From NCBI RefSeq assembly GCF_028368995.1, contig NZ_JAQNDL010000003.1, forward strand, positions 1,024,001-1,088,000: a DNA stretch of 64,000 nucleotides. The letters are read 5' to 3'. Origin of the DNA: Nannocystis bainbridge (GTDB lineage: Bacteria > Myxococcota_A > Polyangia > Nannocystales > Nannocystaceae). Positions 6,726 through 56,060 of this stretch are shown here, piece after piece. Numbering within the stretch: the first letter of the stretch is position 1; every line of letters begins with the position of its first letter. The translations under genes and the position numbers were made by a program. Under the pieces are notes generated by a model, which saw only the letters and a program-made list of their open reading frames with translations, did no database searches and was not told the origin of the DNA.

Positions 6726-6767
6726 TGGCGGCAGGAGCATGTCCCTGAGGACATGTCTCAAGTATCA
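6726..6767. repeat. Phased array of 14-bp TGTCC-N4-GGACA units
   Basis: Perfect TGTCCCTGAGGACA at 6740-6753, flanked in phase by degenerate TG...CA units, between convergent genes. Confidence 0.8.
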
Positions 6768-6826
6768 GGCCGATGCGCAGGCGCTGTCTCGACGCCGTGG
6801 GCTTGCTCGCCCGTCGGGCGGCCGGG

Positions 6827-7402
6827 TCAGCCGGCGCCGGCCTCCAGCACCGGTTGCCAGAAATAGCAGTTCGCGGGCACCTCTTCGCCCTTGAGCGCCC
6901 TGCTCAGCTTGCAATCGCGGCCGGCGAGCGTGTCCATCGTATCGATGATGGTCTGCATCGGGATGTTGGACTCCGCGGAGATGGTCACGGTCGTCTCGTG
7001 CGGGAAAGCCTGCTTGTAGCGCTGCACCCGCTCCTCGAGGGCCGCGTAATCGTAGCGGCTGTAATCGCCGAGCGGCGTGCCGGGCCTGGCCAGCGGGATC
7101 GTCGGCGCTTTCGAATCGGTCGCCTTGCCGGCCTCGGCGCCGTCCTGCTGGGCGTCGGCGGAGATCCGGAAGCCGTCCTCGAGGACCATGACCTTGAGGT
7201 TGAGCGGCTTGTCCTGGGGCGCGTCGTCGGGCTTGGTCTCGGCGCTGGCGGCCGAGAAGCGCGGCGGCGAGACGTTGATCGACGACATCGACGCGTACTC
7301 CATCACCGACAGCAGGAGGGGAATTAATAAAAACATGACGTTCATGACCGGGAGGAGGTCGGCTTCGATCTCCACTCCTTCGAATTTTTTACGCCTGCGC
7401 AT
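6827..7402 (-). CDS. ExbD/TolR-family biopolymer transport protein
   Basis: DLLPVMNVMFLLIPLLL TM segment, VTISAESNIPMQTIIDTMD C-terminal motif, AAGGAGGTGA RBS. Confidence 0.85.
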   Translation of the reverse strand: MRRRKKFEGVEIEADLLPVMNVMFLLIPLLLSVMEYASMSSINVSPPRFSAASAETKPDDAPQDKPLNLKVMVLEDGFRISADAQQDGAEAGKATDSKAPTIPLARPGTPLGDYSRYDYAALEERVQRYKQAFPHETTVTISAESNIPMQTIIDTMDTLAGRDCKLSRALKGEEVPANCYFWQPVLEAGAG

Positions 7403-7810
7403 CGCTTCACCTCCTTGCCCCGGAGCGGGGGTGACCGCAATGAGAGCGGATGATTGGGTACACACGCTGTATGAACTCCATGGACGTGGATCCTCCTTCG
7501 CGCCGGATCGAGAGACCGGCGCGGCGCACCATATGAATGTCGAAATTGCCGGACCGCGCTCCGCGGAGCAGGCGGGCGTCAGCGACGACTTCGCAAGAGC
7601 CGTGTCACGTCGCCGCTCGCGGGCCGTGACACGGGCCACGGCGCCGGGCGGCGCCTGCCCGCCTGGCCGCGAGCGAGAGGAGTACGGGCGCGTTGCGTGC
7701 TCCGGTGAGTACAGTGCCGGGGCCGCGGCCGACCCTACACGCGCCGGGAAGAAATCTCGCGGCGCCGGTCGGAGCGCCACCAAGAGCGCCAGCGGCTCGG
7801 CCGGGACCGC

Positions 7811-8755: not shown

Positions 8756-9008
8756 GGCCGCGAGGGTACCCCACGCGGCGAGATGGCGATGGGCGCCGCA
8801 TTCTTCGTCGGCGGTGAAACAGGTTTCGCAAGACCCCGGCTTCGCGTGCGTATGGCGGCTCGCTGGCAATGGGCAGTCACGGCCGGCGAATGCACGGCGG
8901 GCTCGGCCGTGACGCTCTGGTGAATGCACGCTCGCGGTCTGTTGTCCCCACTCGAGGTCGCGCGGCAGCGGTTCGGCGCCTCGTGGTGGACGCTCGCTAC
9001 GCGGCGGC

Positions 9009-9528: not shown

Positions 9529-10326
9529 ATGCTCGCCGTCACCGGTCCGCCGCGCCGCCTCTACGCGCTCCGCTTCGGCTGGGAGCCGGTGCCCGAGGCC
9601 GTGTCGCTGCGCGGTGGCTCGAAGGATGTGTATTTATTCGAGCCGGTGACCGGCGCCGCGGTCGAGTACGACGACGGCTGGGTCCTGATCGACACCGGCC
9701 TCAACCCGGACATCCTGCGCGACCCGGCGCTGCGCGCCGCGCATTACGTCAAGGCGGCCGTCGGCTGCGTGCCCGAGGGCGATCCGCTGCTGCGCCAGAT
9801 CGACGCGGCCGGGCTGGCGCTCGCCGACCTCAAGGGCTGCGTGCTCTCGCATCTCCACTGCGATCACGGCGGCGGCTTGCGGCACCTCGAGGGCGGCCCG
9901 CCGATCGTGATTCAGGCCCGCGAGCACGCGTTCGCCATGGACGAGGCGACCCTCGAGCACTGCTATTTTAAGAGCGACTACGACCGCCCCGGGCTGCGCT
10001 GGCGGCTCATCGAAGGCGAGGTCGAGCTCGCCGCTGGTTTGCGCACGATCCCGACCTTCGGCCACACGCCCGGGCATCAATCGATCGCCGTCGAGCTGCC
10101 GGTCGGCGGCACCGTCGTGCTCGCCTGCGACGCCGCCGATCTGCGGCGCAACATCGACGCGCTGATCCCGTGCGGCGAGCTCACGCACCCGCACCTCGCC
10201 GCGGCCGCGGCGCGGTCGATCGAGCGCCTGCACGCGCTCGATCGCCAGCCTCGCACCGAGGTCTGGCCCGGCCACGATCCCGACTTCTGGGCCACACGCC
10301 TGGCGCCGCCGGCGGCCTACGGCTGA
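9529..10326 (+). CDS. N-acyl homoserine lactonase family metallo-beta-lactamase-fold hydrolase
   Basis: LIDTG, SHLHCDHGG, GHTPGH, ACDAA and PGHD motifs as in AiiA/AttM-like enzymes. Confidence 0.82.
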   Translation: MLAVTGPPRRLYALRFGWEPVPEAVSLRGGSKDVYLFEPVTGAAVEYDDGWVLIDTGLNPDILRDPALRAAHYVKAAVGCVPEGDPLLRQIDAAGLALADLKGCVLSHLHCDHGGGLRHLEGGPPIVIQAREHAFAMDEATLEHCYFKSDYDRPGLRWRLIEGEVELAAGLRTIPTFGHTPGHQSIAVELPVGGTVVLACDAADLRRNIDALIPCGELTHPHLAAAAARSIERLHALDRQPRTEVWPGHDPDFWATRLAPPAAYG

Positions 10327-10346
10327 CGCGCGCCTTCGCTGGGGCC

Positions 10347-10360
10347 TGTCTCTGGGGACA
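10347..10360. repeat. 14-bp palindrome unit TGTCTCTGGGGACA
   Basis: One mismatch to TGTCC-N4-GGACA, GCC/GGC flanks, between convergent genes. Confidence 0.7.
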
Positions 10361-10372
10361 GGCGGTCGCGGC

Positions 10373-11743
10373 TCAGCCGTCGCCGAGGCGCTGGCGGACG
10401 TCCTGGGCGTAACGGCTGCGGGGGAAGCGGCGCAAGAACTCGGCGCCGGCCTGGGCGGCCTGGGTGGCGCGACCGAGGCGGTGCAGCGCCTCGACGCGGC
10501 CGTGCAGGGCCTCCTCCGCGAGGGCGCCCTGCGGGGCGTCGCGCAGGTAGGCGTCGAACGCCGACAGCGCGCCGCGTGGATCGCCGAGCGGGCCGAGCGA
10601 CAGCTGGCCGAGCGTGACCTGGGCGGTGCGGGCCAGCGAGGTGTCGCCGTGCTCACGCAGCAGACGGCGGTAGATGCGGGCGGCCGCGCGGTAGTTGCCG
10701 GCGCCGCGCAGCGCGTGGGCCTCGTCGATGAGCTGCCCGGGGTCGCTGGCCGGGCGCGCTTTGGCCGGAGCGCTGCGCTCGGCGGCGGCGGGGACCGCCC
10801 GGGCCAGCGAGTCGGCCGTCTCGCCCTCGGCGAGCAGGCGTTCGCCGTCGGGGCCGTGCAGGCGATGGGTGCCGTGGACCGCGGTGATCCGCCAGCGCTC
10901 GGGCTCCGCGATCACTCGCAGGGCGCCCGGCCCGTCGCTGACGATCGCCACGCCGGCGACCTCGATCCACACCACGCCGACGGCCGCCGGCGTGACCTCG
11001 ACGTGCAGGTCGCCGCGCTCGACCGCGAGGACGGCCCCGCGCACCCGCAGCTCGGCCTCGCCCGCGGCGCAGGCGGTGAACAGGTCAGTTGCGCCGACGC
11101 AGGCGGCGTCGTCGAGGCGCAGCGGGCCGTCGGCGAGCGGCTGGTGGAGGGCGAGCGGAGCCTGGCCGTCGCTGCCGCCGCCGCCGCCGCGGAGCAGGCG
11201 CAGCTCGGCGGGCATGTCCTTCGAGACAGGCGCTTCGGCTCGACCGGGGCTGTCCTTCGGGGCATGGGCGACGAGGTCGAGCGCGGTTCTGTCCTTTGGG
11301 ACAGGTGGTTCGAGGTCGAGCTTCGCGCCGGGCGCGACCTGGGCGGCGCGCGATGACATGTCCTCGGGGACATGTCCGAAAGGACGGATGATCAGCAGCC
11401 ACGCGGCGGCCGCGGCGAAGGCGACGCCGAGGCCGATGCCGAGGGCCGAGCGCCGGCCGGGGCCCGACGCGGCCGGGTGGCCGGCGAGGAAGCGGTCGAC
11501 CGCGCCGGCGACGATGGCGTCGTCGGCGGCGGTGACTTCGGGCTCGCCGCGGCGGAGCTCGTCGAGCAGCTCGCGCTCGCGTCGGGTCGCCGCCCCGTCG
11601 CCGCGGTGGGCCGCGAGGAAGGCGGCGTCGTCGGCCGCGAGCGGGTCGCCGGCGAGGGACGCGTCGACGAGTCGGCGCCAGCGTCGGTCCGCGGAGGTGT
11701 CGTCGATTGCTTCGGGTTCGTGGTGCATGGGAGGCTCCGTCAC
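10373..11743 (-). CDS. Putative anti-sigma factor (single TM, FecR-like beta domain, C-terminal TPR)
   Basis: Overlaps the ECF stop by 4 nt. TM LGIGLGVAFAAAAAWLLII. C-terminal TPR ending FLRRFPRSRYA. Confidence 0.78.
   Translation of the reverse strand: MTEPPMHHEPEAIDDTSADRRWRRLVDASLAGDPLAADDAAFLAAHRGDGAATRRERELLDELRRGEPEVTAADDAIVAGAVDRFLAGHPAASGPGRRSALGIGLGVAFAAAAAWLLIIRPFGHVPEDMSSRAAQVAPGAKLDLEPPVPKDRTALDLVAHAPKDSPGRAEAPVSKDMPAELRLLRGGGGGSDGQAPLALHQPLADGPLRLDDAACVGATDLFTACAAGEAELRVRGAVLAVERGDLHVEVTPAAVGVVWIEVAGVAIVSDGPGALRVIAEPERWRITAVHGTHRLHGPDGERLLAEGETADSLARAVPAAAERSAPAKARPASDPGQLIDEAHALRGAGNYRAAARIYRRLLREHGDTSLARTAQVTLGQLSLGPLGDPRGALSAFDAYLRDAPQGALAEEALHGRVEALHRLGRATQAAQAGAEFLRRFPRSRYAQDVRQRLGDG
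11215..11386. repeat. Five 14-bp palindrome units inside the anti-sigma linker
   Basis: Units at 11215, 11251, 11290 (perfect), 11359 (perfect) and 11373. Confidence 0.8.
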
Positions 11744-12366
11744 GGGGCCGGACGGCCGAGGTTGAGGTCGCGGCGGATGAGCTTGCGGAGGGTCTCTTCG
11801 GCCTTGAGGACCCGCGACTTGACGGTGGGCACCGGGGCTCCGGTCAGCTCGGCGATCTCGGGCAAGGTGTGGTCGAGCGCGTGGCGGAGCACGAGGGCGA
11901 TCCGCTGGGGCTCGGGGAGGAGGGCGAGGTAGTCGGCGACGGCCCGCGGGATGTGCTCGCGCAGGTCGTCACCGGGTTCGAGGGGCTCGTTGCCGGGGTC
12001 GTCCTCGTCGTGGCTGACGAGCGCGAGCCGACGCCCGCGCTTCAGCCAGCGGAGGGTGACGCGCACGGTGATCCGGCGCGCCCACGCCTCGAGCGGGCCC
12101 TGGCCGGCGTAGGTGCGGGCCGACTCGAGCAGCTCGACGAGGGCGGTCTGGGAGAGGTCGTCGGCGTCGCTGCCGGCGCCGAGCAGCGCCCGGGTGACGC
12201 GCCGCGCGACCGGGAGCAGCCGGCGAGCGAAGGTGGTGGCGGCCTGGCGATCGCCGGCGGAGGTGGCCCGCGCGAGGGCCCGGGCCTCGGCGTGCTCGGC
12301 GGTCCCGTCGGACGGAGCATCCGCGGCGACGGCGACGAGCGCAGGTGCGGGGGCCTTGGCGAGCAA
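11740..12366 (-). CDS. ECF RNA polymerase sigma factor
   Basis: Region 2 DADDLSQTAL...LEAWARRI. Region 4 LPEPQRIALVL...EIAELTGAPVPTVKSRV. Confidence 0.92.
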   Translation of the reverse strand: MLAKAPAPALVAVAADAPSDGTAEHAEARALARATSAGDRQAATTFARRLLPVARRVTRALLGAGSDADDLSQTALVELLESARTYAGQGPLEAWARRITVRVTLRWLKRGRRLALVSHDEDDPGNEPLEPGDDLREHIPRAVADYLALLPEPQRIALVLRHALDHTLPEIAELTGAPVPTVKSRVLKAEETLRKLIRRDLNLGRPAP

Positions 12367-12377
12367 TCAGCGGTAGG

Positions 12378-14242: not shown

Positions 14243-15970
14243 TCACTCCGCGCGGCGGACGAAGTGCTCGCTCGCGGCCAGCTGCACGTAGAACTCGCGC
14301 AGGCCGAGCTCGCCCTCCTGCAGGGCGGTGCGGGCCTCCTCGGCGAGGCAGTTCTCCTCGACGCCGTAGGCGAAGTTGGCGAGCAGGCCGCTGACGCAGT
14401 CGGTGGTCTGCGGCAGCTCGGCCAGCTTGCTCGCCATGTCGGTGAGGCCGTCGAAGGTGACGAGCGGCACCAGCTTCGAGTCGACCGCCTGGCCGGTGGC
14501 GTCGATCGTCAGCCCGTTCTCGTCGGCGCGGTAGCGGCCCGCTTGATCGAAGTGCTCGAAGCCGAAGCCGATCGGGTCGAAGTACTGATGACACGACTGG
14601 CAGGCGGGATCGCCGGCGTGGGCGACCTCGTAGCGCTCGCGGGTGGTCTGCGCGCCGGGCATCGGCGGATCGATGGCCGGGATGTTCATCGGCGGCGGGA
14701 TGTGCGGGCCGCACAGCAGGCGGTCGTAGACCAGCAGGCCGCGCTTGGTCGGCGACGAGCTGTCGGCGTGGGCCTGGCCCGCGAGCACCGAGCCCTGGGC
14801 CAACAGGCCGATGCCCCAGTCGTCCGGCCGCTCGACGACGACGCTCTCGCCGGCGATCTGGCCGAAGCCGTAGAACTGCGACAGCGTCGCGTCGAGCACC
14901 GTGAACGACGCCGTCAGCAGGGCCCGCACGTCGCCGTCCTGGGCGAACACCACCTCGTCGACGAAGCGCCGCGTCTCGTCGATCATGCGCATGCGGATGC
15001 CGTCGAACCCGGCGATGTCGATCTTCACCTTGCTCTCGACCTGCGGGTACTTGGCCCACTGGCGGAAGAACAGGTGCAGCACGCCCTTGCCGCGCGCGGT
15101 CGCCAGCAGCGCCTCGGCCTCGGCCATGCGCGCCTCCGGGGTCGCCAGCGCGCCCTGCTCGGCCTTCGCCAGCAGCTCCGGGCTCGGGGTGCTGCCGCCG
15201 TAGGTGTACGCGAGCGCGGTCGCGACCTCGTAGGGCGTCAGCGCGTGACCGCCGTCGACCGGCTCGCCGAGCTCGCTGCGGTACACGGCGTGCGGTGACT
15301 GGATCAGGCCGACGAGGGTCCACTTCAGCGCGATCGGGAACGCGACCTCGGCGGCGATGCCGGCGAAATGCGCCTCGTAGCGCCCGCGCTCGTCGCCGCT
15401 GAGCGGGCGGCGGAACAGCCGCTCGCCGTACTTGCCGATGAACTCGGCGGCGCAGGCCGAGTCGGGCTTCTGGGCCGCGCACGGCAAGATCGTCGACAGC
15501 ACCGCGGGCGCGGTGACGGCGTCGCCGACGGCCTCGGCGGTGGCGAGCCACTCCTTCGCGGTCTGGTCGCCGACCAGCAGCGTCGCGGCGTCGTTGGTGA
15601 ACCCGTGCTTCGACGCCGGATCGATGCCCAGCGCCACCCCGGACCACGTCGCCTCGATCTCGGGGAAGATGTCGCGCAGCGTGCTCTCGAGCTCGACCTG
15701 CGACAGGCGCCGCAGCACCCGCGCGCCCAGGCGCGACTGCTCGCAGCGGCCGGACGGGTTGATCGGCGGCGGATCGTCGCCGGTGTCGCTGGTGCCGGCG
15801 GTCGGATCGTCGCCGGTGGTCGGCACGCCCGCGGTGCCGCCGGTCTCGGTGTCGCTGCCGCCGGGGTCGGAGTCGGTGCCGGCGCCGCCGCCGCTGCTCG
15901 GACAACCTGTCCCGAAGGCCAGGCCGAGCGCGAGGTACAGATGTCGGGAGGAGAGGTCGATGCGTGTCAT
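14243..15970 (-). CDS. DUF1592/DUF1588-family lipoprotein with CxxCH motif
   Basis: LRRLSQVELESTLRD, RLFRRPL, SSPTKRG, CQSCH, DPIGFGFEHFD. ATGA overlap with the DUF1552 gene. Confidence 0.88.
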   Translation of the reverse strand: MTRIDLSSRHLYLALGLAFGTGCPSSGGGAGTDSDPGGSDTETGGTAGVPTTGDDPTAGTSDTGDDPPPINPSGRCEQSRLGARVLRRLSQVELESTLRDIFPEIEATWSGVALGIDPASKHGFTNDAATLLVGDQTAKEWLATAEAVGDAVTAPAVLSTILPCAAQKPDSACAAEFIGKYGERLFRRPLSGDERGRYEAHFAGIAAEVAFPIALKWTLVGLIQSPHAVYRSELGEPVDGGHALTPYEVATALAYTYGGSTPSPELLAKAEQGALATPEARMAEAEALLATARGKGVLHLFFRQWAKYPQVESKVKIDIAGFDGIRMRMIDETRRFVDEVVFAQDGDVRALLTASFTVLDATLSQFYGFGQIAGESVVVERPDDWGIGLLAQGSVLAGQAHADSSSPTKRGLLVYDRLLCGPHIPPPMNIPAIDPPMPGAQTTRERYEVAHAGDPACQSCHQYFDPIGFGFEHFDQAGRYRADENGLTIDATGQAVDSKLVPLVTFDGLTDMASKLAELPQTTDCVSGLLANFAYGVEENCLAEEARTALQEGELGLREFYVQLAASEHFVRRAE

Positions 15971-25592: not shown

Positions 25593-25606
25593 TGTCCAAA
25601 AGGACA
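25593..25606. repeat. Perfect 14-bp palindrome TGTCCAAAAGGACA
   Basis: Between convergent genes, CA/TG flanks. Confidence 0.8.
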
Positions 25607-29920: not shown

Positions 29921-29934
29921 TGTCCATGAGGACA
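29921..29934. repeat. Perfect 14-bp palindrome TGTCCATGAGGACA inside the IS
   Basis: In the non-coding end of the IS, downstream of the transposase stop. Confidence 0.8.
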
Positions 29935-29998
29935 TACGAATCCCGGCGCGGAGAGGCGCACCCATGCGGGCAGGAGGTTGTCGAGGATCGTCAGCGTC

Positions 29999-31444: not shown

Positions 31445-31532
31445 ACCCGCTCAAACTCGGGAAGTACGGCCGGAATTCCTTACCGTGGTGAGAAATCCGG
31501 GCTAGGGCCCCTGCCGCGACGGTGATAGGCTC

Positions 31533-41220: not shown

Positions 41221-41332
41221 GCGGCCCCCTCGCCGCGACCCCGCGTCCGTGACGGACGCGCGAGCCCTGGCCCGCGCGTCCGTCACGTCGCCGATCGCCG
41301 ACGACCGCCGCCGCCTCGCGCATGAACCGGGC

Positions 41333-42373
41333 ATGCGCGCTCGCATCGGCGTCCTCCTGGGCCTCCTGCTCTGCGGCTGTGCCGAGAGCCTCACCCGTCG
41401 CATGGTCCCTGCCGCGCTCGACGAGGGCGTCGGCTTCTTCGAGGACCCCGAGTCGCAGCGCCGCATCGAGCGCCTGATGCTCGACCCGCAGGTGCAGCAC
41501 GCCGCGCGCGAGCTCAGCAAGTCGATGGTCGGCGGCGTCGTCGACGCGGTGACCGACGACGCCCGCCAGGCCGAGCTGCGCGAGGCCTCGACGAAATACA
41601 TCGAGGCCGTCGCCGGCGCCGCCGCTCGCAGCCTGCGCAGCGACCTCGGCCCGGCCGCGGCCGAGGCCGCCCGCCACGCTGTCGCCCAGGTACTGGCCGC
41701 CGGCCTGTCCCCGGAGACACGTCAGGACATGCGCGCCCTGGCCCAGTCGTTGACGCAGGCGACCGTCGACGGCCTGATGGAGTCGGCCGGCCGCGGCCTG
41801 CGCCACCAGCTCGGCCCGGCCGTGCGCGCGGTGATCGAGGACGATCTCGGCCCGAGCCTGCGCACGATGATCGCCCGCGACGTCGCGCCGAGCCTGCGCC
41901 AGGCGCTGGCGACCGAGCTGACCCCGGCGCTGGCTCTGGCCGCGCGCGAGGTGACGCACCAGATCGTGATCGGCGGCCACGACGGCCTCGAGGAGCTGCG
42001 CTTCCGCGAGCGCGCCGGGCAGTTCCAGGTCGATTTCTGGAGCCGCCTCGACGGGCTGCTCCACAAGGGCATGCAGCTCAGCGCGCTCGTGGCGTGGGGG
42101 CTCGGCGCGGTGGTCCTGGTGCTGGCGATCCTGTTCGGTCGCGCGATCGTCCTGCGCCGCCGCCTCGACGAGGAGCGCCTCCGCAGCGAACGCATGCTGC
42201 TCGGGGTGATGCACGGCCTGCAGCAGGGCAGCGACAAGCCCGACATCGAGGCCTTCCTCGCCCACCTGCGCGAGCGCGACCCCGACCTCGCCGACGAGAC
42301 CTTCATGGAGAGCCTGGCCCGCCGCGTGTCCCAGCCCGGCGGCCGCCCCGGCCGACCCCGCCGCCGGCTCTGA
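41333..42373 (+). CDS. Helical lipoprotein with C-terminal TM segment
   Basis: LLLCGC signal, repeated LGP/VAP helical units, TM LVAWGLGAVVLVLAILF. Confidence 0.75.
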   Translation: MRARIGVLLGLLLCGCAESLTRRMVPAALDEGVGFFEDPESQRRIERLMLDPQVQHAARELSKSMVGGVVDAVTDDARQAELREASTKYIEAVAGAAARSLRSDLGPAAAEAARHAVAQVLAAGLSPETRQDMRALAQSLTQATVDGLMESAGRGLRHQLGPAVRAVIEDDLGPSLRTMIARDVAPSLRQALATELTPALALAAREVTHQIVIGGHDGLEELRFRERAGQFQVDFWSRLDGLLHKGMQLSALVAWGLGAVVLVLAILFGRAIVLRRRLDEERLRSERMLLGVMHGLQQGSDKPDIEAFLAHLRERDPDLADETFMESLARRVSQPGGRPGRPRRRL

Positions 42374-42376: not shown

Positions 42377-42520
42377 TGTCCCTTCGGACATGTTTAATCA
42401 GAGGCCCGCCGCCATGTGTCACATGTCCATCAGGACATGTGACGCATGATCGATTGCATCGAGTCCCATGACCCCGCCGGCGACGATTCACATGGCCTCT
42501 CGGACATGTCCATGGAATCA
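42377..42520. repeat. Cluster of 14-bp palindrome units with a long hairpin
   Basis: Perfect units at 42377 and 42424, degenerate units at 42493 and 42507, 36-bp near-perfect inverted repeat at 42413-42448. Confidence 0.85.
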
Positions 42521-45903: not shown

Positions 45904-46055
45904 TGTCCGCGTCGGCATGTCCTCGGAGCCACGTTCGCGGGGCGCCCCGCCCCCGCGCCTCGGTCTTCTCATGTCTTCAAGGACATGATCTCGAGAACAT
46001 GCCCTCGAGAACATGCCCTTCCAGACATGCCCCTTCGGGCATGTCCCTCAGAACC
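45904..46055. repeat. Phased tandem arrays of 14-bp TG...CA units (2 + 6 units)
   Basis: Two units at 45904-45931 and six contiguous units at 45972-46055, with CATG every 14 bp. Confidence 0.9.
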
Positions 46056-46989
46056 GGCCCTGCAGCACGAGCCCGGCCCCGCCGCGCAGCCAGGTCGGCG
46101 CCAGGCCGAGCTCGCGGCGGGCCCGCTGCTGGCCGGCCGCGCCGGCGCCGATCAGGCCGATGCCGGTGACCACCAGCACCCCGCCGGCCACCGCGGTGGC
46201 GATCGCCAGGGTGTTGGCGACGGTGCCCTGGTCGAGCAGGTCGCGATAAACAGTGGGGTCGGTGACCCCGTCGGCCTTGGCGGCCTCGCCGTCGCGGTCG
46301 ACGCGGGCTCCGCGGGCCAGGCCGAAGGCCATCACGCCGAGGGCGATCGCGCCGGCGCCGGTCAGCGCGCCGCCGGCGATCGTGAGCCGGCGCGAGCGCT
46401 TGGCCTCGCGCTCGGCGGCCGCGCGCCGGGCCTCGGCCTCGCGCGACGCGCTGGCTTTCTCGGCCGCAAGGCGGGCCTCGGCCTCGCCGTCGTCGCGGCC
46501 CTCCGCGGCCTCGGTGGCGGCCTTCTTCTCGGCCGCCTCGCGCGCCTCGGCGTCGGCGATCTTCGCCCGCAGCTCGTCGAGCGTGCCCTGCACCTTGGCG
46601 GTCGTGGTCGTGTCCTTGGCGCTGATCGTCTTGAGGTAGTTGTCGAACAGCCGCTCGGCCTTGCGCAGGTACACGAGCTGCGGGTCGAGCTCGTACGCCT
46701 CGACGCACGCCTGGGCGATCTGGTAGGCGAGCACGTTGCGCCGCTTGTCGTACGCGGCCTCGTTCGGCAGCGCCGCGTAGGCCTGCGTCCACAGCTCGAT
46801 CGCGCCGGCGTAGTCGGCCGTCTCGAAGCGCGTCTGCGCCTCCTGCGCGAGCGCGCTGATCTTCGCGTTGAGCTCGTCGCCCGCCTTCGTGGGGGCAGCC
46901 GCGCCAGCCTCGGGCACCGCTGCCGCGAGGGTCAGCGCCGCCGCGAGCCCCGCGGCCAAGCATCGCCGCCCGTGCCTCGCCATCGCCAT
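46048..46989 (-). CDS. Exported TPR protein with C-terminal hydrophobic hairpin/beta region
   Basis: Signal peptide, DYAGAIELWTQAY TPR, ends GAGLVLQGRF. Confidence 0.8.
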   Translation of the reverse strand: MAMARHGRRCLAAGLAAALTLAAAVPEAGAAAPTKAGDELNAKISALAQEAQTRFETADYAGAIELWTQAYAALPNEAAYDKRRNVLAYQIAQACVEAYELDPQLVYLRKAERLFDNYLKTISAKDTTTTAKVQGTLDELRAKIADAEAREAAEKKAATEAAEGRDDGEAEARLAAEKASASREAEARRAAAEREAKRSRRLTIAGGALTGAGAIALGVMAFGLARGARVDRDGEAAKADGVTDPTVYRDLLDQGTVANTLAIATAVAGGVLVVTGIGLIGAGAAGQQRARRELGLAPTWLRGGAGLVLQGRF

Positions 46990-47072
46990 AAGCGGCCTCG
47001 ATACTATGCCGGCGGCCGCCACGGCGACAAGGCTCAGTTCCGCGCGAGCGCGCCGGCGGGACGTTGACCGCG

Positions 47073-47100
47073 TGTCTTTTAGGACAGGTCCGTGCGGACG
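47073..47100. repeat. Two phased 14-bp units in a divergent intergenic region
   Basis: TGTCTTTTAGGACA followed by GGTCCGTGCGGACG. Confidence 0.7.
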
Positions 47101-47137
47101 TTGCACCGTCGGCACTTCCTCGTCGATACTGCCGACG

Positions 47138-48283
47138 ATGGCGCGCCCGCTCCTCGTCGCCTGGGCGCTCGCGCTCAGCGCCTGCTTCACCGGCGGATTC
47201 CTGTCCGGCCAGCCCTGCACCGCCGACAGCGACTGCGGCCCGAGCCTGCGCTGCGAGGCCGGCGTGTGCGGCGGACCGACGGCGCAGACCAGCCCGACTT
47301 CGACCTCGACGGCGACCGCGACGCCGACCTCGACCACCACCGCGGGCGACGCGACCACCGTCGAGCCGACCTCGACTTCGACGACCACGACCACCGGCGA
47401 CACCACGCTGACGCCGCTGACGAGCAGCACGACGTCCACCACCGAGGACGAGACCACCGGCGGCGGCTGCGGGATCGGCCGGTGCAAGGACCTCGACATC
47501 CTGTTCGTCGCCGACAACTCGCCGAGCATGTTGATCAAGACCCTGATCCTGCTCGACTTCATCACCACCTTCGGCACCGAGATGATCCCCGAGCTGCGCA
47601 AGGCCTGCAGCGTGCACCTCGGGGTGATCACCACCGACGCCTACCCGCACAACCCGCCCGAGTGCCAGAAGATCGGCGCGCTGGTGTCCGCCGACAACAA
47701 CGAGAACGCCTGTGTGCTCGCCGAGGGCAAGCCCTACGCGACCATGGCCGACCTCGACATGCCGCTCACGCTCGAGTGCCTGTTCAACATCGGCTCCGAC
47801 GGCGACAACGACGAGCGCCCGGTCGACGCCCTGTTCTCGACAGTCGGCGCGCTCGACCCGTCGCTCAACCCCGGCTGTAACCAGGGCTTCTACCGCCCGG
47901 GCGCGTTCCTCACCATGGTCCTGGTGGCCGACGAGGACGACGACAACAACGACGCCCAGGGCCACGACGGCTCCGAAGAGATCTTCGAGTCGTTCTGGGC
48001 CGGTTCGCTGGCCAACCTCAAGCCGACCGGGATCGACGACCTCTACATGGTCGGCCTGCTCGGGGACCCCAAGATGGGCCAGCAAGCCTGCCCGTGGAAC
48101 CCGAGCGAGGAGCCCGACGGCTTCGGCACCGAGACCACCCCGAAGCTGCGCGGTTTCATCCAATCGCTGCCCCCGGAGCGCTACGCGCTCGGCACGCTGT
48201 GCAACGTGGTGCCGGGCGGCACCGCGTTCAAATCGCTGATGGAAGAGTTCCGCAACGAACTGCGCGTCGCCTGCGGGGCGTGA
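47138..48283 (+). CDS. Lipoprotein with Thr linker and vWA-like domain
   Basis: LSAC lipobox, CTADSDC module, DILFVADNSPSM, LVADEDD. Confidence 0.82.
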   Translation: MARPLLVAWALALSACFTGGFLSGQPCTADSDCGPSLRCEAGVCGGPTAQTSPTSTSTATATPTSTTTAGDATTVEPTSTSTTTTTGDTTLTPLTSSTTSTTEDETTGGGCGIGRCKDLDILFVADNSPSMLIKTLILLDFITTFGTEMIPELRKACSVHLGVITTDAYPHNPPECQKIGALVSADNNENACVLAEGKPYATMADLDMPLTLECLFNIGSDGDNDERPVDALFSTVGALDPSLNPGCNQGFYRPGAFLTMVLVADEDDDNNDAQGHDGSEEIFESFWAGSLANLKPTGIDDLYMVGLLGDPKMGQQACPWNPSEEPDGFGTETTPKLRGFIQSLPPERYALGTLCNVVPGGTAFKSLMEEFRNELRVACGA

Positions 48284-48309: not shown

Positions 48310-50664
<2,355 letters not shown>

Positions 50665-50751
50665 CCGCCCATGCCTGTATCTTCCCGCCAGGTGAAGGCC
50701 GCGCCGCGTGCGGGCGACGCCGGACCGCGCGGAGGACCCGATCTCTTCGGC

Positions 50752-50821
50752 TGTCCCTTCATACATGTCGAAAGAAACATGTCTGTGAGCCCATGCCCCT
50801 CAGGGCATGTCCTCTCGAACA
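50752..50821. repeat. Five phased 14-bp TG...CA units
   Basis: TGTCCCTTCATACA TGTCGAAAGAAACA TGTCTGTGAGCCCA TGCCCCTCAGGGCA TGTCCTCTCGAACA. Confidence 0.88.
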
Positions 50822-50946
50822 CCCTCCCCCGCTCCGCCCTTCGGCCCCGGCGCCGGTGGTCGCGTCACGCGGCGTGACCGCGCCCGACCCGGGCAGCGCC
50901 GCCGACGCTCCGCCGGGTCAAGCTCGGCCGTCATGTCCGCCCCGGC

Positions 50947-53397
50947 TCAGCCCGGGCAGATCTGGAAGGCGTCGGCGCCGAGGTTGTTGCCGGGGTGGCA
51001 GTCGGCGATCTTGTCGTCGGGGTCGACGTCGACGAACACGTTGCCCGTGCCGGCGAGGTTGGCGACGCACTGGACGACCTCGCACTGGCCGGGTTGCAGC
51101 AGCATCGTCGTCGCGGCCTCGCAGACGACCGTGGCCATGCTGACGTCCTGGTCCAGGGTCATGGTCTCGAGGAAGGCGACGGTGACGCCGTCCTGGACCG
51201 CGTTGGTGCCGCGGTTGCACACCTCGGCGGTCAGCTCGATCTCGCCGGCCCCGAAGGAGCACAGCTCACCGATCTCCGCCAGCTCGACGGTGAGGTCGGC
51301 GATCTGCAGGGCGCCGACGTCGCCCTGGCTGTTCTGGCGCAGGTCGTTGAGGCCTGGCGTCTGCCAGTTGTTCTTGAACTCGCTGCGCGGCGGGACGCGG
51401 GCGTCGTCGGTGACGTGCGTGACGGAGTAGACGTGCTGGTTCCACACCGGCCGGGAGTTGGCCCAGCGGTCCATCGGATCGCGGTAGATGGCGAAGCCGG
51501 TCGAGGCCTTGAACGGGCCGCCCTCGGGGAACAGCGGGTCGGTCGCCGGGCAGCCGCCGGCCGGGGTGCGCGGGACGATGATCTCGGTGGCGAAGTCGCC
51601 GTCGACGTCGGCGATCGTCGGGTAGTCGAGGCCGGTCGCGCTCGAGGCCGGGGTGCTGAAGAGGACGGCGCCGGACTTGCCGTCGTAGACGCGGAGGTAG
51701 CACTCGTCGCGGTAGACGGCCTCGCCGTCGCCGTCGCCGTCGAAGTCGAAGATCGACGATCCCGTGGTCCTTGACGACTGGTCGTCCGAGGGCTGGGCCC
51801 ACAGGACGCCGTCGGGCAGGTCCTTGGCCACCTGCTCGGGGGCGCGTTCGCAGGTGCCGCCCGGGCGCTCGGGCGGGCTCATGCCCATGAGCGACGCCTG
51901 GCAGTCGGGGTCGTAGACGACGTACTGCTCGGCGCCGGCGGAGGCGAACTCGACCTGGCCGTCGCCGTCGAAGTCGCTGATCGTGATCGGGCCGCCCTCG
52001 TCGGGATCGTCGGCGGGGCCGGTCTTGTAGGTCTCGATCGGGCCCCAGACGACGGCGCCGTCGAGCGTCTGCACGCGGATCTGCCCCTTGTCGCCGGGCG
52101 CCGACAGGACGACGACCTCGGGCTGCTGCGCCGGATCGACGCCGGGGAGGTTCGAGTAGAGGCCGACGTCGGCGACGCCGGTGAAGCCGTTCAGTTGCAT
52201 CGGGTTGGCGACGAACCATGGCTTCTCGACCCACTCGGTGGTCACCTCGTCCCAGCCAGCGACGCTGCGCGCGGTCACGAGGTCCATCTGCCCGTCGAGG
52301 TCGACGTCGGCCGCGTACTCCATGCCGGTGGCCTCGCTCTTCAGCCAGGTGGTGAGCAGGCAGCCCTCGGCGTCGAACACCTGACGGCCGACGAGGATCT
52401 CCGGGCGGTCGTCGTCGTCGAGGTCGACGAGCAGCGGGCTGGCGAGGGTGCTGCCGCTGCTGAAGTAGAGCGCCATGTCGTTGTTGTCACAGTCGCGGCC
52501 GTACCACATGCGCTCGAGCACTGGCGCGTCGACCGTGGAGTCGATGCGCACGGCGTAGAGCCGGACCTCGTCGCCGTCGTCGTCGGAGTTGAGGTGGTAG
52601 CTGACGAGCTCGGGGTGGCCGCCCTGCGGGACATCGCCGTCGAGGTCGCCGACCGCCCAGGTGGCGGCGTAGGCCGGGCGGTTCTTGAAGTCGGGCTCGT
52701 CGACGCCGCCGAGGCGCATCTGCTCCTCGCAGGTGCGGCCGTCGAACACGCGGAGGGTGCCGAGGCGGTTGGCGTTGGCGACATGGAAGGTGGTGACGAT
52801 GATCGAGGGCTGGAGCTTGCCCGGGTCCTTGTCGAGGTTAAGGTCGGCGATCGACGGGGTGGTATAGATGCGGTTCGAGGCCGCGGTCGGGTCGTCGGCG
52901 GCGGTGCCCGTCCACTCGCACTGCAGGGTGGGGGTGACGCCCTCGGGGATCGGGGGCTTGGTGCAGTCGGGGTCGTTGATGACGGAGGGGGGGACGTCGT
53001 AGGGGATGCACACGCCGTCGGCGTCGCAGTAGGAGTCGCCGGGGCAATCGTCGTGGGTGAGGCAAGGACCGAGGTCGGGGATGCAGGTCTCGTACTTGCA
53101 GATGAAGTTGTCGGGGCAGCCGCCGCAGGCGGGGTCACCCGTGGTCTCGACCGTGGTCGCGGTCGGGTCCGTCGAGGTGCCGGTCGGCGGATCGACGGGC
53201 TCGGTCGTGCCGGTGTCGGGCTGAGACGTGCCGGTGGTCAGGGGCAGCGCGGTCGTGCTGCCCGGGCTCCCGGTCGGGTCGCTGGCCGTGGGATCGCCAT
53301 CGGTGCTGGAACCCGCCGAGGTGCTGCCTTCGTCGCCGCATCCGGCCGCCCACGTCACCGCACCCACCAAAACCCACGGACTCCAATGCATTCGCAT
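50947..53397 (-). CDS. FG-GAP-repeat lipoprotein with C-terminal CARDB-like domain
   Basis: AGC lipobox, DFDGDG repeats, WNQHVYSVTHV, ADL...VCNRG...DC..GNN. Confidence 0.85.
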   Translation of the reverse strand: MRMHWSPWVLVGAVTWAAGCGDEGSTSAGSSTDGDPTASDPTGSPGSTTALPLTTGTSQPDTGTTEPVDPPTGTSTDPTATTVETTGDPACGGCPDNFICKYETCIPDLGPCLTHDDCPGDSYCDADGVCIPYDVPPSVINDPDCTKPPIPEGVTPTLQCEWTGTAADDPTAASNRIYTTPSIADLNLDKDPGKLQPSIIVTTFHVANANRLGTLRVFDGRTCEEQMRLGGVDEPDFKNRPAYAATWAVGDLDGDVPQGGHPELVSYHLNSDDDGDEVRLYAVRIDSTVDAPVLERMWYGRDCDNNDMALYFSSGSTLASPLLVDLDDDDRPEILVGRQVFDAEGCLLTTWLKSEATGMEYAADVDLDGQMDLVTARSVAGWDEVTTEWVEKPWFVANPMQLNGFTGVADVGLYSNLPGVDPAQQPEVVVLSAPGDKGQIRVQTLDGAVVWGPIETYKTGPADDPDEGGPITISDFDGDGQVEFASAGAEQYVVYDPDCQASLMGMSPPERPGGTCERAPEQVAKDLPDGVLWAQPSDDQSSRTTGSSIFDFDGDGDGEAVYRDECYLRVYDGKSGAVLFSTPASSATGLDYPTIADVDGDFATEIIVPRTPAGGCPATDPLFPEGGPFKASTGFAIYRDPMDRWANSRPVWNQHVYSVTHVTDDARVPPRSEFKNNWQTPGLNDLRQNSQGDVGALQIADLTVELAEIGELCSFGAGEIELTAEVCNRGTNAVQDGVTVAFLETMTLDQDVSMATVVCEAATTMLLQPGQCEVVQCVANLAGTGNVFVDVDPDDKIADCHPGNNLGADAFQICPG

Positions 53398-53609
53398 CGG
53401 TGCATCGTCGACAACGAGGCGGGCGACGTCAAGCCGCGACCCCGCGCGTGCGCGGTCGTCTGGCCCGAGGGACAGGTGATGAAGAATCGTGGACGGGCGC
53501 CGGGGGACGGAGGCCTCGGTCGCCCTCGACGCGCCGCGTGCACCCGCGAGCGAGCAGCGCTCGCATGCGGCGACTCCCCGCGAACGCGGACATGGCGGAG
53601 GCGCGCACC

Positions 53610-53623
53610 TGTCCCGGGGGACA
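53610..53623. repeat. Perfect 14-bp palindrome TGTCCCGGGGGACA
   Basis: 10 nt downstream of the tssA stop. A degenerate unit also lies at 53461-53474. Confidence 0.8.
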
Positions 53624-53633
53624 GCGAGCGCGT

Positions 53634-56060
53634 TCAGCTCTTCGGCACCAGCGCCGCCGCGCGGACCGGGTCGAGGCCGGCGAGGCGGGCCAGCGCCGCG
53701 TCGACGATCGCCTTCTCGGCCGGCTGGGCCTTCGGCGCGCTGCGGACGTGGCCCTCGAGGCAGCGGGCCGCCAGCTCCGGCTCCCACGTCTCGAGCTGTT
53801 GCCCGTCGATCTCCGCGACCAGCCCGGCGAACAGCGAGCGGGCCAGGCCCATCTCGCCGCCGTCGAGGCACGCCTCGGCCAGCTCGACGCGGCGGAGGAA
53901 GCGGGACCGGCCGCCGGCCGCCGACTGCACACGCGCGGCTCCGAGGCGCAGGCCCTCCTCGCGCTTGCCGCGGAGCAGGCCCTTGATCTGCGCGATCGCG
54001 GCGTCGTCGATCCCGCTGGCCACCGGCGCCGCGATCACGATCTGCGCCGGCCCGCCCGCGGCCACGGCCACCGGCGCACCGCCACCACCACCGCCACCGC
54101 CGCCGCCGCCGCCGCCGAGCGCCTCGCGCTCGAGCAGCGTCCGGGTCGCGTCGTTGCACAGCGGCGCGCCCGAGTTGTCCTTCAGGTCGAAGATCTTCGG
54201 CAGCCGCGTCAGCAGGGCGCCGACCTCGGCCAGCAGGCCGCGCAGCGCCGGGTCGTGATCGGCCCCGAGGTTCTTCAGCGCCTCGACGCTGTAGCGGTGC
54301 AGGTCGAGCGTGAAGCGGTTCATCGGCAGCAGCGACTCGCTGTGCTCGACCAGCTCGGCCCACTTGCCGGCGTTCATCAGCGCCTCGAGGCGGTTGCGTT
54401 CGCCCTCGGGCAGGCCGTTGATCGCCGTGTTGCCGTCGGGCCGCGTCGGCGGCGGCGCGGCGATGTAGATCCACAGGCCCGAGCGCAGCAGCCGGTAGGC
54501 CAGCGCGTCGCTGGTCTTGGCCCGCCGCAGCGCGTGCCCCAGCTTGACCAGCTCCTCGCCGGTGTTGCGCAGGAACCGGTCGACCGCGGCCAGGTCGGCC
54601 GTCGGCGCGGCGGCCACCGTCTTGGGCGGCTCGATTACCGGCGCCGGCTTGGCCGGGCTGGCCTGAGGGACAGGTGGCGGCGCCTGCTGCTGCTGTTGCT
54701 GCTGTTGCGGCGGCGGCGGCGGCGGGGCCTCGACCTTCGGCGGCGGCGGCGGTGGCGGCGGCGCGGCCGGCTTGGGCGGCTCGGGCGCGGGGATCGTCAG
54801 CAGCAGCTGGTCGATCGACTGCAGCATCAGCCGCAGGTTGGGCGCCTGGTCGGCGTAGCGGGCCCGCGTCACCTGCTGCAGCCGCGTCGCGCTGTCCTTG
54901 AGCTGCTCGATCGCCGCGCGCTCGCTCGGCTTCGGCTGCCACGCCGCCAGCTCCGGCTCGATCTGGTCGAGCACCCCGCGCAGCGCCCCCGCGCGGCCGC
55001 GCAGGCGGGCCGCCGGCGGGAACGCGGTGTCCCAGAACGTGTCCGCGACCTCGGCGACGATCGCCAGGCCGAGCGCGAGGCCGGCGATGCCGCGCGTCTT
55101 GAAGCGCGCCAGCGCCTGGTGGCACACGACCCGCAGGTCCTTGGCCTGGGTCTTCAGCACCGTGTCGGCGTCGCGCACGATCGCCGCCCAGTCGATCGCG
55201 CCGCCGGTCGGCGACTGCAGCTTGTCGACCTCGGCCAGCAGGGTCTGGTACTCGGGCGACTCGGTCGGGTCGCGCCCGGCCGGGTTCGGGCCGACGATCG
55301 GCACCAGCCACGGGCCGGCGATGTCCTTCGGGGTCGGCTTCGGCGGCGGCTCGGGCGGCGCGGCCACCGGCGGCGGCGCGGCGGCCTCGGGGGCCTGGGC
55401 GGGCGGCGGGGCCGCGGGCGCGGCGGATGGCTGTTGGGACATGTCCGACGGGACCTGTCCCGAAGACTCTTCGGGCTGCGCCTCGGCCTTGGGCTCGGGC
55501 GGCAGGGTCGCCTGGATGCTGTCGAGGAGGTCGGTCCACTCCTTGAAGGAGGGCACGTGGTCGCCGAGCTTCTCGCGGGCGCGGCCGCGGAGCTGCTTGC
55601 TGGCGGTGACGAGGGCGGTGATCGCCGCGCGGTCGGACACCTGCGGCGTGTAGCTCTGCAGCCCGGCGGCGGCGTGCTCGAGCAGCCACTTGAGCGCGGT
55701 GCCGCGGCCCTTGAGGCGGGCGACCGGCGGGTACATCGTGTCCCAGAAGCGGTCGAACAGGCCGTCGACGACGAGGACGGCGACGGCGAGGCCGTGGATC
55801 CCGCGGGTCTTCTGCAGGGCGAAGCCGAAGTAGGCGGCGACGAGCAGGTCCTTGGCGACCTTGCCGAGGATCTCGCGGCCGAGGCTCTCGACGCGCGGCC
55901 AGCCGACGGCCTCGCCGATCGGCGAGTTCTCCTTGTCGACCTCGAGCCGCAGCTCCTGGTAGCGCTCGTCGGTGTTGGGGTTCTTGCCGCCCGGCTCGGC
56001 GGCGGAGATCGGCGCGAGCAGAGCCTCGGCCTCCTTGATGAACACCTCGGCGATCGCCAC
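53634..56060 (-). CDS. tssA: T6SS TssA with two ImpA_N domains and VasJ-like C-terminus
   Basis: Two copies of L.PI...P.G.....Y..L..EVDK......W......L....KDL. C-terminal AYRLLRSGLW, LDLHR, WEPELA. Confidence 0.85.
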   Translation of the reverse strand: MAIAEVFIKEAEALLAPISAAEPGGKNPNTDERYQELRLEVDKENSPIGEAVGWPRVESLGREILGKVAKDLLVAAYFGFALQKTRGIHGLAVAVLVVDGLFDRFWDTMYPPVARLKGRGTALKWLLEHAAAGLQSYTPQVSDRAAITALVTASKQLRGRAREKLGDHVPSFKEWTDLLDSIQATLPPEPKAEAQPEESSGQVPSDMSQQPSAAPAAPPPAQAPEAAAPPPVAAPPEPPPKPTPKDIAGPWLVPIVGPNPAGRDPTESPEYQTLLAEVDKLQSPTGGAIDWAAIVRDADTVLKTQAKDLRVVCHQALARFKTRGIAGLALGLAIVAEVADTFWDTAFPPAARLRGRAGALRGVLDQIEPELAAWQPKPSERAAIEQLKDSATRLQQVTRARYADQAPNLRLMLQSIDQLLLTIPAPEPPKPAAPPPPPPPPKVEAPPPPPPQQQQQQQQAPPPVPQASPAKPAPVIEPPKTVAAAPTADLAAVDRFLRNTGEELVKLGHALRRAKTSDALAYRLLRSGLWIYIAAPPPTRPDGNTAINGLPEGERNRLEALMNAGKWAELVEHSESLLPMNRFTLDLHRYSVEALKNLGADHDPALRGLLAEVGALLTRLPKIFDLKDNSGAPLCNDATRTLLEREALGGGGGGGGGGGGGAPVAVAAGGPAQIVIAAPVASGIDDAAIAQIKGLLRGKREEGLRLGAARVQSAAGGRSRFLRRVELAEACLDGGEMGLARSLFAGLVAEIDGQQLETWEPELAARCLEGHVRSAPKAQPAEKAIVDAALARLAGLDPVRAAALVPKS

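Follow-up and report, generated by a model that had tools for sequence, protein, structure and literature searches.

A 14-bp interrupted palindrome at gene 3' ends is the dominant inverted repeat of a Nannocystis genome

The 64-kb stretch of Nannocystis bainbridge DNA analysed here (contig NZ_JAQNDL010000003.1, positions 1,024,001–1,088,000; hereafter the window) belongs to an 11.05-Mb, 71.5% GC assembly of five contigs (genome G000) and carries numerous copies of the 14-bp interrupted palindrome TGTCC-N4-GGACA, located between convergent genes, in tandem and divergent gaps, within genes and inside an insertion sequence (IS). The palindrome is the dominant inverted repeat of the genome and a 3'-end element, not a promoter, origin (ori) or terminus (ter) site; it occurs across the whole genus and, weakly, in two sister genera. 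A preliminary description of the window had singled it out as a candidate chromosome-wide site for a nucleoid-organising, segregation or global protein, conceptually similar to parS, NBS, SBS or matS.

The palindrome in the window

All nine perfect copies that the preliminary description had placed in the window (6740, 11290, 11359, 25593, 29921, 42377, 42424, 50280 and 53610) were found at those coordinates, compared with a mean of 0.03 and a maximum of one in 100 dinucleotide-preserving shuffles, in agreement with its expectation of well under one perfect copy per 64 kb. They are accompanied by 13 one-mismatch and 38 two-mismatch sites, and the resulting 60 sites at ≤2 mismatches exceed the 26.0 ± 5.1 of the shuffles, none of which (0/100) reached 60. 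The earlier count of ‘more than 20’ degenerate copies is about right, considering the 13 solid one-mismatch sites and an excess of roughly a dozen two-mismatch ones; among those it had named, the copies at 10347, 47073, 50136, 53461, 54659 and 55428/55442 were recovered at ≤2 mismatches. The array at 45972–46055, with six units in 14-bp phase, is also real. The earlier guess of ~73% GC is likewise close, with 69–75% measured along the window in steps of 4 kb. The sites are as follows; open reading frames (ORFs) were called with our own likelihood caller based on GC content at third codon positions (GC3), which yielded 8159 ORFs covering 83% of the genome and on which all gene orientations rest.

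6740..6753: perfect copy 42 nt past the stop codon of ORF 5588–6697 (plus strand), in the convergent gap there
10347..10360: one-mismatch copy between ORFs 9529–10326 (plus strand) and 10373–11743 (minus strand)
11215..11386: five-copy cluster (11215, 11251, 11290, 11359 and 11373; two perfect) within a low-complexity, indel-rich stretch of the ORF that lies downstream of an ECF sigma gene; 11359 and 11373 abut in 14-bp phase
15908..15921: one-mismatch copy in an ORF; identical mismatch in two of three aligned relatives (G001 and G005), two mismatches in the third (G007)
25593..25606: perfect copy forming the tip of a 13-pair hairpin, in a convergent gap of 100 bp
29921..29934: perfect copy inside an IS, 65 nt past the stop codon of the DDE transposase gene 29999–31306 (minus strand)
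41706..41719: one-mismatch copy in an ORF, identical in five of five relatives
42377..42506: cluster beginning 3 nt past the stop codon of ORF 41249–42373 (plus strand); two copies are perfect (42377, with an 11-pair stem, and 42424, with a 13-pair stem) and the one at 42493 has one mismatch
45904..46055: 3'-end arrays, comprising two phased units (45904–45931) and the 14-bp-phase run 45972–46055 (five units at ≤2 mismatches), which overlaps the stop codon of the minus-strand ORF ending at 46048; an array occupies this position in five of five relatives, with different unit numbers and spacers
47073..47100: one-mismatch copy with a degenerate unit abutting it, located in a divergent gap 14 bp upstream of a promoter-like pair (TTGCAC...GATACT); four of five relatives show an identical 9-of-10 match but other spacers, and G010 has another base at the mismatched position
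50136..50149: two-mismatch copy in a Ser/Thr kinase ORF, within its disordered C-terminal tail
50280..50293: perfect copy in the same kinase tail; perfect in four of five relatives, one mismatch in the fifth
50752..50821: three degenerate units 3' of the kinase ORF stop codon (50664)
53461..53474: tandem-gap copy with one mismatch
53610..53623: perfect copy 10 nt past the stop codon of ORF 53634–56060 (minus strand); this gene end carries one to several copies in five of five relatives despite differing neighbour genes
54659..54672: one-mismatch copy in an ORF; one to two mismatches in five of five relatives
55428..55455: two abutting degenerate units in an ORF

By these gene calls, the window copies are not confined to promoters, as had been proposed: they lie in convergent gaps (6740, 25593 and the 45972 array), in tandem gaps (53610 and 42377/42424), in ORFs (50280 and 11215–11386) and in the IS (29921).

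Genome-wide over-representation

The genome contains 1987 perfect copies with the N4 spacer, whereas each of the spacers N0–N3 and N5–N12 yields 0–16; enrichment is thus specific to N4 and is not shared by N3 and N5. One-mismatch copies number 4258, compared with about 100–320 for other spacers (an excess of about 4000), and two-mismatch copies 7530, compared with about 2100–5900, from which excesses a family of roughly 6,000–10,000 members can be estimated. Of all 5-Nk-5 inverted repeats, TGTCC-N4-GGACA ranks first, its count being 189-fold the median obtained with other spacers, and ACATGT is the top over-represented hexamer of the genome under a Markov model. A second over-represented word family, unrelated to the palindrome, consists of TGCGCGCGCT/AGCGCGCGCA and AGCGCCGC/GCGGCGCT.

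The enrichment survives a codon-aware null: ORFs hold 773 copies, compared with 20–30 in six synonymous-codon shuffles and 3–7 in three codon-order shuffles. Given that synonymous shuffling abolishes nearly all copies, it is the nucleotide sequence, rather than the encoded peptide, that matters. In non-coding DNA, 1198 copies contrast with 1–2 in Markov-3 simulations. Every full 250-kb bin, on all five contigs, contains 12–79 perfect copies, which bears out the notion of a chromosome-wide site, and no ori/ter gradient or domain was seen in these bin counts.

Placement relative to genes

The density of perfect copies is highest in convergent gaps (1.52 per kb), followed by tandem gaps (0.62), divergent gaps (0.22) and ORFs (0.085), such that convergent gaps are 18-fold denser in copies than ORFs. 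Counted by gap, a copy is present in 736 of the 1367 convergent gaps (54%; 56–67% of those measuring 60–400 bp), 993 of the 3899 tandem gaps (25%) and 225 of the 1473 divergent gaps. Compact divergent gaps (<150 bp) are nearly free of the palindrome (7/386, 2%), and copies in divergent gaps have no preferred distance from the start codon. On the 3' side, 2698 of 8159 genes have a copy at ≤1 mismatch within 300 nt past the stop codon, with a sharp peak at 0–40 nt and phase spikes at −3, +2, +11, +16 and +25 relative to the stop; accordingly, the TGA stop codon is often part of a unit. Roughly a quarter to a third of protein genes carry the element 0–40 nt past the stop codon.

Of the 780 perfect copies assigned to ORFs, 671 lie more than 90 nt from the ORF ends. 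These interior copies use all three frames (382/228/61) and encode varied peptides. A local GC3 test was passed by 76.5% of them, compared with 91.7% of random ORF positions and 1.4% of intergenic ones, from which it follows that about 83% of interior ORF copies, corresponding to about 28% of perfect copies, are truly coding. They occur mostly in disordered linkers and show the raised GC content at second codon positions (GC2) typical of low-complexity linkers; their flanks prefer C/G, whereas those of intergenic copies prefer A/T. Motif-derived peptides (...GHVPEGM... and ...GHVPKD...) were recognized in two proteins of this genome, UvrC (in an N-terminal extension) and a RecQ-like helicase (in the C-terminal linker), so the element has entered housekeeping genes.

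Unit architecture and sequence constraint

The element occurs singly, in exact 14-bp-phase arrays or atop longer hairpins, its arms being constrained base by base while spacer and surroundings drift. The core is often extended to ACATGTCC-N4-GGACATGT, and the logo reads R-C-[A/C]-TGTCC-Y-N-N-R-GGACA-[T/G]-G-Y. The arms are fixed, as the preliminary description had it, and the spacer is variable (189 of the 256 possible tetranucleotides were observed) but not wholly free as claimed there, its first base being C or T in 78% of copies and its last A or G in 76%. UUCG-type spacers are among the commonest, self-complementary ones are as frequent as expected (9.7% versus 9.4%), and the palindrome contains no stop codon in any frame.

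Stand-alone copies account for 493 of the 1987 perfect ones. Exact 14-bp-phase arrays comprise 1451 doublets, 363 triplets and, for four to eight units, 95, 50, 18, 3 and 2 arrays, some of which are recent tandem duplications with identical spacers (C3:1085845). On contig C1, 3' of an HNH endonuclease gene (L075:1233–1450), tandem repeats of roughly 100 bp each open with a motif copy (TGTCCCGARGGNCAGGTCGC...) and resemble composite mosaic elements with short palindromes at their boundaries.

An alternative way of reading the arms is the arrangement GGACATGTCC, with 956 copies in the genome, all but 33 of which have a partner arm at N4 on at least one side. Unpartnered half-sites do not rise above control level: CATGTCC occurs 7160 times, 5222 of them partnered at ≤2 mismatches, and control 7-mers occur 31–3530 times (2337–3530 for the closest-matched ones, CATGCTC, CATGACC and CATGCCC). 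With lone GGACATGTCC rare and unpartnered half-sites at background frequency, the unit is the interrupted palindrome, and abutting units give rise to GGACATGTCC. A DNA uptake sequence (DUS/USS), that is, an asymmetric word enriched on its own, was rejected on account of the partnerless half-sites being at control level.

Individual arm positions tolerate change to very different degrees. With the other eight arm bases fixed, variants at G2/C13 number 50, at T1/A14 432, at C4/G11 498, at C5/G10 1389 and at T3/A12 1889, so that G2/C13 is almost invariant and T3/A12 free. Changes on a single side dominate; compensatory pairs are not enriched except for a modest C-G excess, and covariation is almost absent from the flank pair −1/+14. 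The preferences seen in flanks and spacer are likewise symmetric without covariation, the two halves degenerating independently. Half-site independence, position-specific constraint and lack of compensatory covariation form the pattern predicted for recognition of two half-sites, in keeping with the dimeric-protein-type site suggested in the preliminary description; such variation appears to reflect base-specific recognition of two half-sites, and neither a structure kept by pairing nor neutral decay of copies.

Distribution and turnover among relatives

Perfect copies were found in all 10 genomes of the same genus (114–2090 each), two sister genera of the family have 87 and 161 copies, and the other 17 genomes have ≤7, six genera being negative; a reversed-pattern control gave 0–10 copies across the same genomes. 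The outer ACATG...CATGT flank occurs 924–1472 times in six large genomes and 19–123 times in five smaller assemblies of the genus. For one sister genus (G011), 20 copies were classified as 10 coding, one at an ORF edge, one tandem, one divergent and seven unclassified, with a caller tuned for 72% GC applied to a sample of 61.5% GC.

Orthologous sites were compared for 13 alignable window sites in the syntenic DNA of up to five relatives, giving 43 non-independent comparisons. Differences affect 6.5% of arm positions (28/430), 23% of spacer positions (40/172) and 20.6% of flank positions (256/1241), the arms thus being about three times better conserved than spacer or flanks. An additional 400 kb of G005 provided only 13 alignable sites, with the same trend and small numbers. 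The flanks of the 50280 copy carry many substitutions and indels among relatives, and this copy and the one at 47073 are islands of conservation in the alignments.

Intergenic copies turn over quickly. At 78 orthologous gene ends compared with G005, a copy was present in both genomes in three cases, only here in 10, only there in two and in neither in 63. Three ORFs, those terminating at 42373, 46048 and 53634, nevertheless have copies at their 3' ends in six of six genomes, although unit numbers, spacers and neighbour genes differ. Near the 53634 gene end, two relatives have an extra 1.4–1.6 kb and one about 7 kb, and the motif copies stay with the gene end.

Hairpins and terminators

At least five extra copy-specific Watson–Crick pairs extend the stem of 16.7% of convergent-gap copies, compared with 3.0% of controls, and at least seven extend 7.3% compared with 0.2%; no such excess exists in ORFs or divergent gaps. 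RNA folds predicted for window examples have z-scores of −2.8 to −6.3, and Rfam at gathering threshold gave no hits on the window. Since extended stems overlap in 14-bp phased arrays, only five-pair stems can coexist there. The element is not explained by hairpin stability alone.

A strict scan for canonical terminators flagged 253 of 8158 protein genes (3%), a figure that is a lower bound because the same scan flags only 8 of 102 tRNA genes and misses many tRNA terminators visible by eye. After protein genes, canonical terminators and the motif showed no exclusivity.

Comparison with known repeats and binding sites

The closer comparators of the element are repetitive extragenic palindromic (REP) elements and bacterial interspersed mosaic elements (BIMEs), the Neisseria dRS3/NTS repeats and the cyanobacterial highly iterated palindrome HIP1, and not parS, NBS, SBS or matS. 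Among the literature found, it would belong with the former three groups as a variant not previously described. Its distinguishing traits are the strict 5-N4-5 layout with a free centre, exact 14-bp array phasing, stop-codon adjacency, base-specific arms, many conserved intragenic copies and no known cognate enzyme. Searches of the literature with the motif string, which did not amount to a proper search directed at Nannocystaceae, surfaced no bacterial genome-wide repeat of this kind among the papers listed, in one case largely p53 response-element and other eukaryotic work and in the other an unrelated mixture of eukaryotic and bacterial-regulator studies, and within that limit the earlier impression that the motif had not been described stands.

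With REP/BIME elements, which are reported to bind host proteins (PMC2817692), the palindrome shares the nature of a high-copy, lineage-specific short palindrome located after genes and between convergent genes, regular arrays and the capacity to fold into hairpins at mRNA 3' ends. REP sequences differ in being oriented and having a GTAG/GTGG head, according to the REP table in PMC2817692, whereas the Nannocystis element is fully symmetric and headless. BIMEs alternate in orientation, whereas the Nannocystis arrays are head-to-tail in exact 14-bp phase, with a unit of 14–20 bp and a free 4-bp centre. REP/BIME elements are concentrated outside genes, whereas more than a quarter of the perfect copies here are inside genes, and the pairing of REP with RAYT has no counterpart in the form of a Y1/RAYT gene found in the Nannocystis genome. 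Among REP-type features, therefore, high copy number and 3'-side extragenic location are present, and the asymmetric head and cognate Y1 transposase are not.

The dRS3 repeat, ATTCCC[N8]GGGAAT, is described as occurring in hundreds of copies in Neisseria, where Ssn proteins, GIY-YIG nucleases, cut at dRS3/NTS hairpin repeats (PMC11893778). Fixed inverted arms, a variable centre and the clustering of hairpin repeats around genes are common to both systems, and the Ssn-NTS pair provides a precedent for repeats of this type serving a single dedicated protein as its cognate site. The arms differ in sequence and the spacer in length, and the dRS3/NTS repeats surround selected loci, as opposed to most gene ends here; hairpin repeats with fixed arms and a variable centre in at least hundreds of copies are found in this genome too, but not a co-distributed small GIY-YIG gene of the kind that usually has its repeats on its flanks.

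HIP-type palindromes are spread through coding and non-coding DNA without a positional tie to gene ends. The Nannocystis palindrome resembles HIP1 in being a lineage-wide over-represented short palindrome, enriched in genes beyond codon expectation and conserved at orthologous positions, and differs from this contiguous 8-mer by its interrupted 5-N4-5 form, 3'-intergenic bias, tandem phasing and hairpin extension; survival of the codon null is shared, whereas the convergent bias and the stop-codon peak tie the Nannocystis element to gene ends. HIP1 itself (GCGATCGC), the function of which was long unknown, shows comparable over-representation and conservation, as far as described in PMC5861425 and PMC4390886.

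Two promoter operators have a similar layout: the box of the LuxR-type regulator CviR, CTGNCCNNNNGGNCAG (CTGNCC-N4-GGNCAG; PMC12114271), and the PadR consensus ATGT-N8-ACAT (PMC4517056), each as given in the cited source. Both share the half-site spacing and some bases with the motif, the variable third arm position matches that of the CviR box, and the A-flanked form of the motif contains ATGT-N8-ACAT; in both cases this is a resemblance only, and no PadR gene was found. These boxes are promoter operators present in tens of copies, whereas promoters in this genome are nearly motif-free, the copy at 47073 being the one conserved promoter-proximal case.

Possible function and alternative explanations

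The placement of the copies is what suggests a function. We tentatively favour, with somewhat less than even confidence, the view that the palindrome is the core of a lineage-specific REP/BIME-like element punctuating gene 3' ends and recognized by a sequence-specific protein. The arms would be recognized by a single nucleic-acid-binding protein, sequence-specific, probably dimeric and conserved in the genus; the bound protein and/or the hairpin would delimit transcription units, such that read-through between neighbouring, especially convergent, genes is stopped or buffered and/or mRNA 3' ends are protected, as for REP/BIME in enterobacteria. Copies inside genes might be tolerated or co-opted members of the family. 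In a bolder version, which we regard as improbable, a dedicated genus-specific protein would coat phased arrays at a third of protein-gene ends and form a genome-wide roadblock or insulator distinct from intrinsic and Rho-dependent termination, with intragenic copies acting as tunable pause or boundary points.

Several observations weigh against 3'-end punctuation by a bound protein. The fast turnover of intergenic copies fits a dispensable or mobile element as well. The logo oriented by transcription contains no T-run and no strand asymmetry of spacers or flanks, and among single changes, wobble-compatible ones outnumber wobble-breaking ones in tandem gaps (337 versus 286, p = 0.045) but not in ORFs (257 versus 289). 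By eye, tRNA genes use ordinary hairpin-plus-T-run terminators and the motif lies within 120 nt of only 8 of 102 of them, so that the element is not the general terminator. About 560 genuine intragenic copies are awkward for a strong terminator or roadblock, no protein partner was identified among the RAYT, PadR, Ssn-type and other candidates scanned, and the gene caller on which the placement rests is crude and over-extends some ORFs, for example 46048–47634. An intrinsic (Rho-independent) terminator was rejected in view of the absent T-run and the canonical terminators at tRNA genes. As a separate observation, many stand-alone tRNA genes are followed by GC-hairpin and T-run terminators that end in a recurrent ...TTTGGTC motif.

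The alternative that survives best, though unlikely, is a selfish or mechanically spread repeat without host function, REP/MITE-like (that is, resembling miniature inverted-repeat transposable elements), which would be propagated by some enzyme or by slippage or gene conversion and settle where it is least harmful, on the 3' sides of genes and in disordered linkers. Such a repeat would account for the differing presence at orthologous gene ends (three shared of 15 with a copy), the recent tandem duplications with identical spacers at C3:1085845, the variation in copy number from 114 to 2090 within the genus, a density that tracks permissiveness (convergent > tandem > divergent > coding) and the lack of stop codons, which makes the palindrome absorbable into ORFs. 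Yet neutral decay should affect arm positions alike, whereas G2/C13 variants are at background (50) and T3/A12 variants reach 1889; the arms have diverged about three times less than spacer or flanks at orthologous sites, copies persist at the same gene ends across six genomes, real ORFs contain the element in all three frames although the 14-bp unit is not a multiple of three, and neither a Y1/RAYT transposase nor an Ssn-type GIY-YIG protein was found.

The reading of the preliminary description, a site for a nucleoid-organising, segregation or global double-stranded DNA (dsDNA) protein with no link to transcription, seems to us rather improbable. It draws on the symmetric dimer-like signature without covariation, the lack of transcription-strand asymmetry, the presence in every 250-kb bin, the conserved copies in genes and in one promoter region, and the possibility that phased arrays seed cooperative binding. 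The sites with which it was compared, parS, NBS, SBS and matS, are similar 13–16-bp palindromes read by a dimer on dsDNA, but they number from a few to about a hundred and are confined to ori- or ter-proximal domains. The Nannocystis element, by contrast, has thousands of copies with no regional confinement, ori/ter gradient or domain, and because it is tied to the 3' ends of protein genes (54% of convergent versus 2% of compact divergent gaps), a placement-neutral nucleoid-organising site is unlikely; the tight link to stop-proximal 3' sides, the 14-bp phased arrays and the copies at the tips of extended, copy-specific hairpins in convergent gaps further disfavour it. Judged from the sequences, recognition by one sequence-specific protein at gene 3' ends is most likely, and the segregation or nucleoid analogy is the weaker fit.

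A HIP1-like palindrome kept by a methyltransferase- or repair-linked bias, such as very-short-patch-type correction, rather than by a function of each site, would explain the coding over-representation under the codon-aware null, and biased correction would also give a conserved palindrome with free neighbours, HIP1 being comparably over-represented and conserved in the accounts cited above. This is nonetheless quite improbable, considering the 18-fold higher density in convergent gaps than in ORFs, the phased tandem arrays and the extended stems in convergent gaps, together with a stop-codon proximity that a correction drive does not explain.

Plain structural RNA hairpins, serving as protein-independent terminators or exonuclease barriers and sharing sequence only by descent, are a very doubtful explanation, too. 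The position directly after stop codons, the strongly negative folding z-scores, the strict 4-nt loop with its common UUCG-type spacers, the extended convergent-gap stems and the small number of canonical terminators in the strict scan after protein genes speak for them; the lack of compensatory changes, the overlap of extended stems in phased arrays, the missing T-run, the merely marginal wobble asymmetry and the use of canonical terminators by tRNA genes speak against, as do arms more AT-rich than the genome, not expected of selection for stability at 71.5% GC. Least plausible of all is that the palindrome serves as operator, such as a box of the LuxR or PadR type, for an ordinary transcription factor whose regulon is very large: the geometry matches the CviR and PadR boxes, the variable third base of the arm corresponds to the N in that of CviR and the 47073 copy, conserved in six genomes, is just upstream of a promoter-like pair, but the majority of copies are located after genes, no more than 7 of 386 compact divergent gaps contain one, no start-codon distance is preferred and the genome has no PadR-family gene that we could find.

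No oligonucleotide signal in this 11-Mb genome is stronger than the palindrome, which is common to a whole genus of soil bacteria rich in natural products. Should a single protein read it, the two together would define a way of marking gene ends in very large GC-rich genomes, because ordinary terminators are scarce after protein genes, and would represent a third kind of partnership beside RAYT-REP and Ssn-NTS. The element might be useful as an aid to gene-end annotation, as a lineage marker for metagenome binning and as a candidate insulator part for engineering, and the contrast between invariant G2/C13 and free T3/A12 offers a ready-made mutant control for pull-downs.

Candidate partner proteins

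No Y1/RAYT transposase (PF01797) was matched in the genome, with a completeness of 90.5% and three candidates scored, and the PadR family (PF03551) likewise gave no matches. GIY-YIG (PF01541, used in place of cd10448 itself as the Ssn test) matched only UvrC and one small protein. The latter, presumably UPF0213-like, was rejected as the partner: it has close homologues in the motif-free genomes G020 and G022 and appears split in the motif-rich G007. CsrA (PF02599) was discarded as the determinant, being present across the family, motif-free genera included. Copies flank 64 genes on both sides; these mostly encode secreted or membrane proteins, and one encodes a nuclease (HNH). The HNH endonuclease was also rejected, with homologues in motif-free genera and weak or missing matches in G011 and G013.

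Neighbouring genes and other features

The extracytoplasmic function (ECF) sigma gene at 11740–12366 (minus strand) overlaps by 4 nt the downstream tetratricopeptide repeat (TPR) ORF (from 10373), a possible anti-sigma factor, in which the linker holds the five copies of the 11215..11386 cluster. The IS at 29839–31505 encodes a DDE_Tnp_1_4 transposase; this genome has a single copy of it besides two fragments, which makes it uninformative on IS targets or termini, and one relative has two copies. Between 42646 and 45831, a 1061-aa FG-GAP repeat protein gene is flanked on both sides by the motif clusters 42377–42506 and 45904–46055; the gene is absent from the same convergent gap in five of five relatives, in which its best matches lie elsewhere (65–79% identity). 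Gene content is also variable at 50668–53634, with ORF 50947–53370 missing in three relatives.

The promoter-like TTGCAC-N18-GATACT (47101–47140), located 7 nt before the ATG of a lipoprotein-like ORF, is kept in six genomes, and this short distance suggests a leaderless transcript. Elsewhere in the genome, tRNA genes form two dense arrays, at C2:2556665–2559233 (about 30 genes in 2.6 kb) and C2:2356727–2357509 (about seven genes in 0.8 kb), both in sequence more AT-rich than the rest and possibly of mobile or phage origin.

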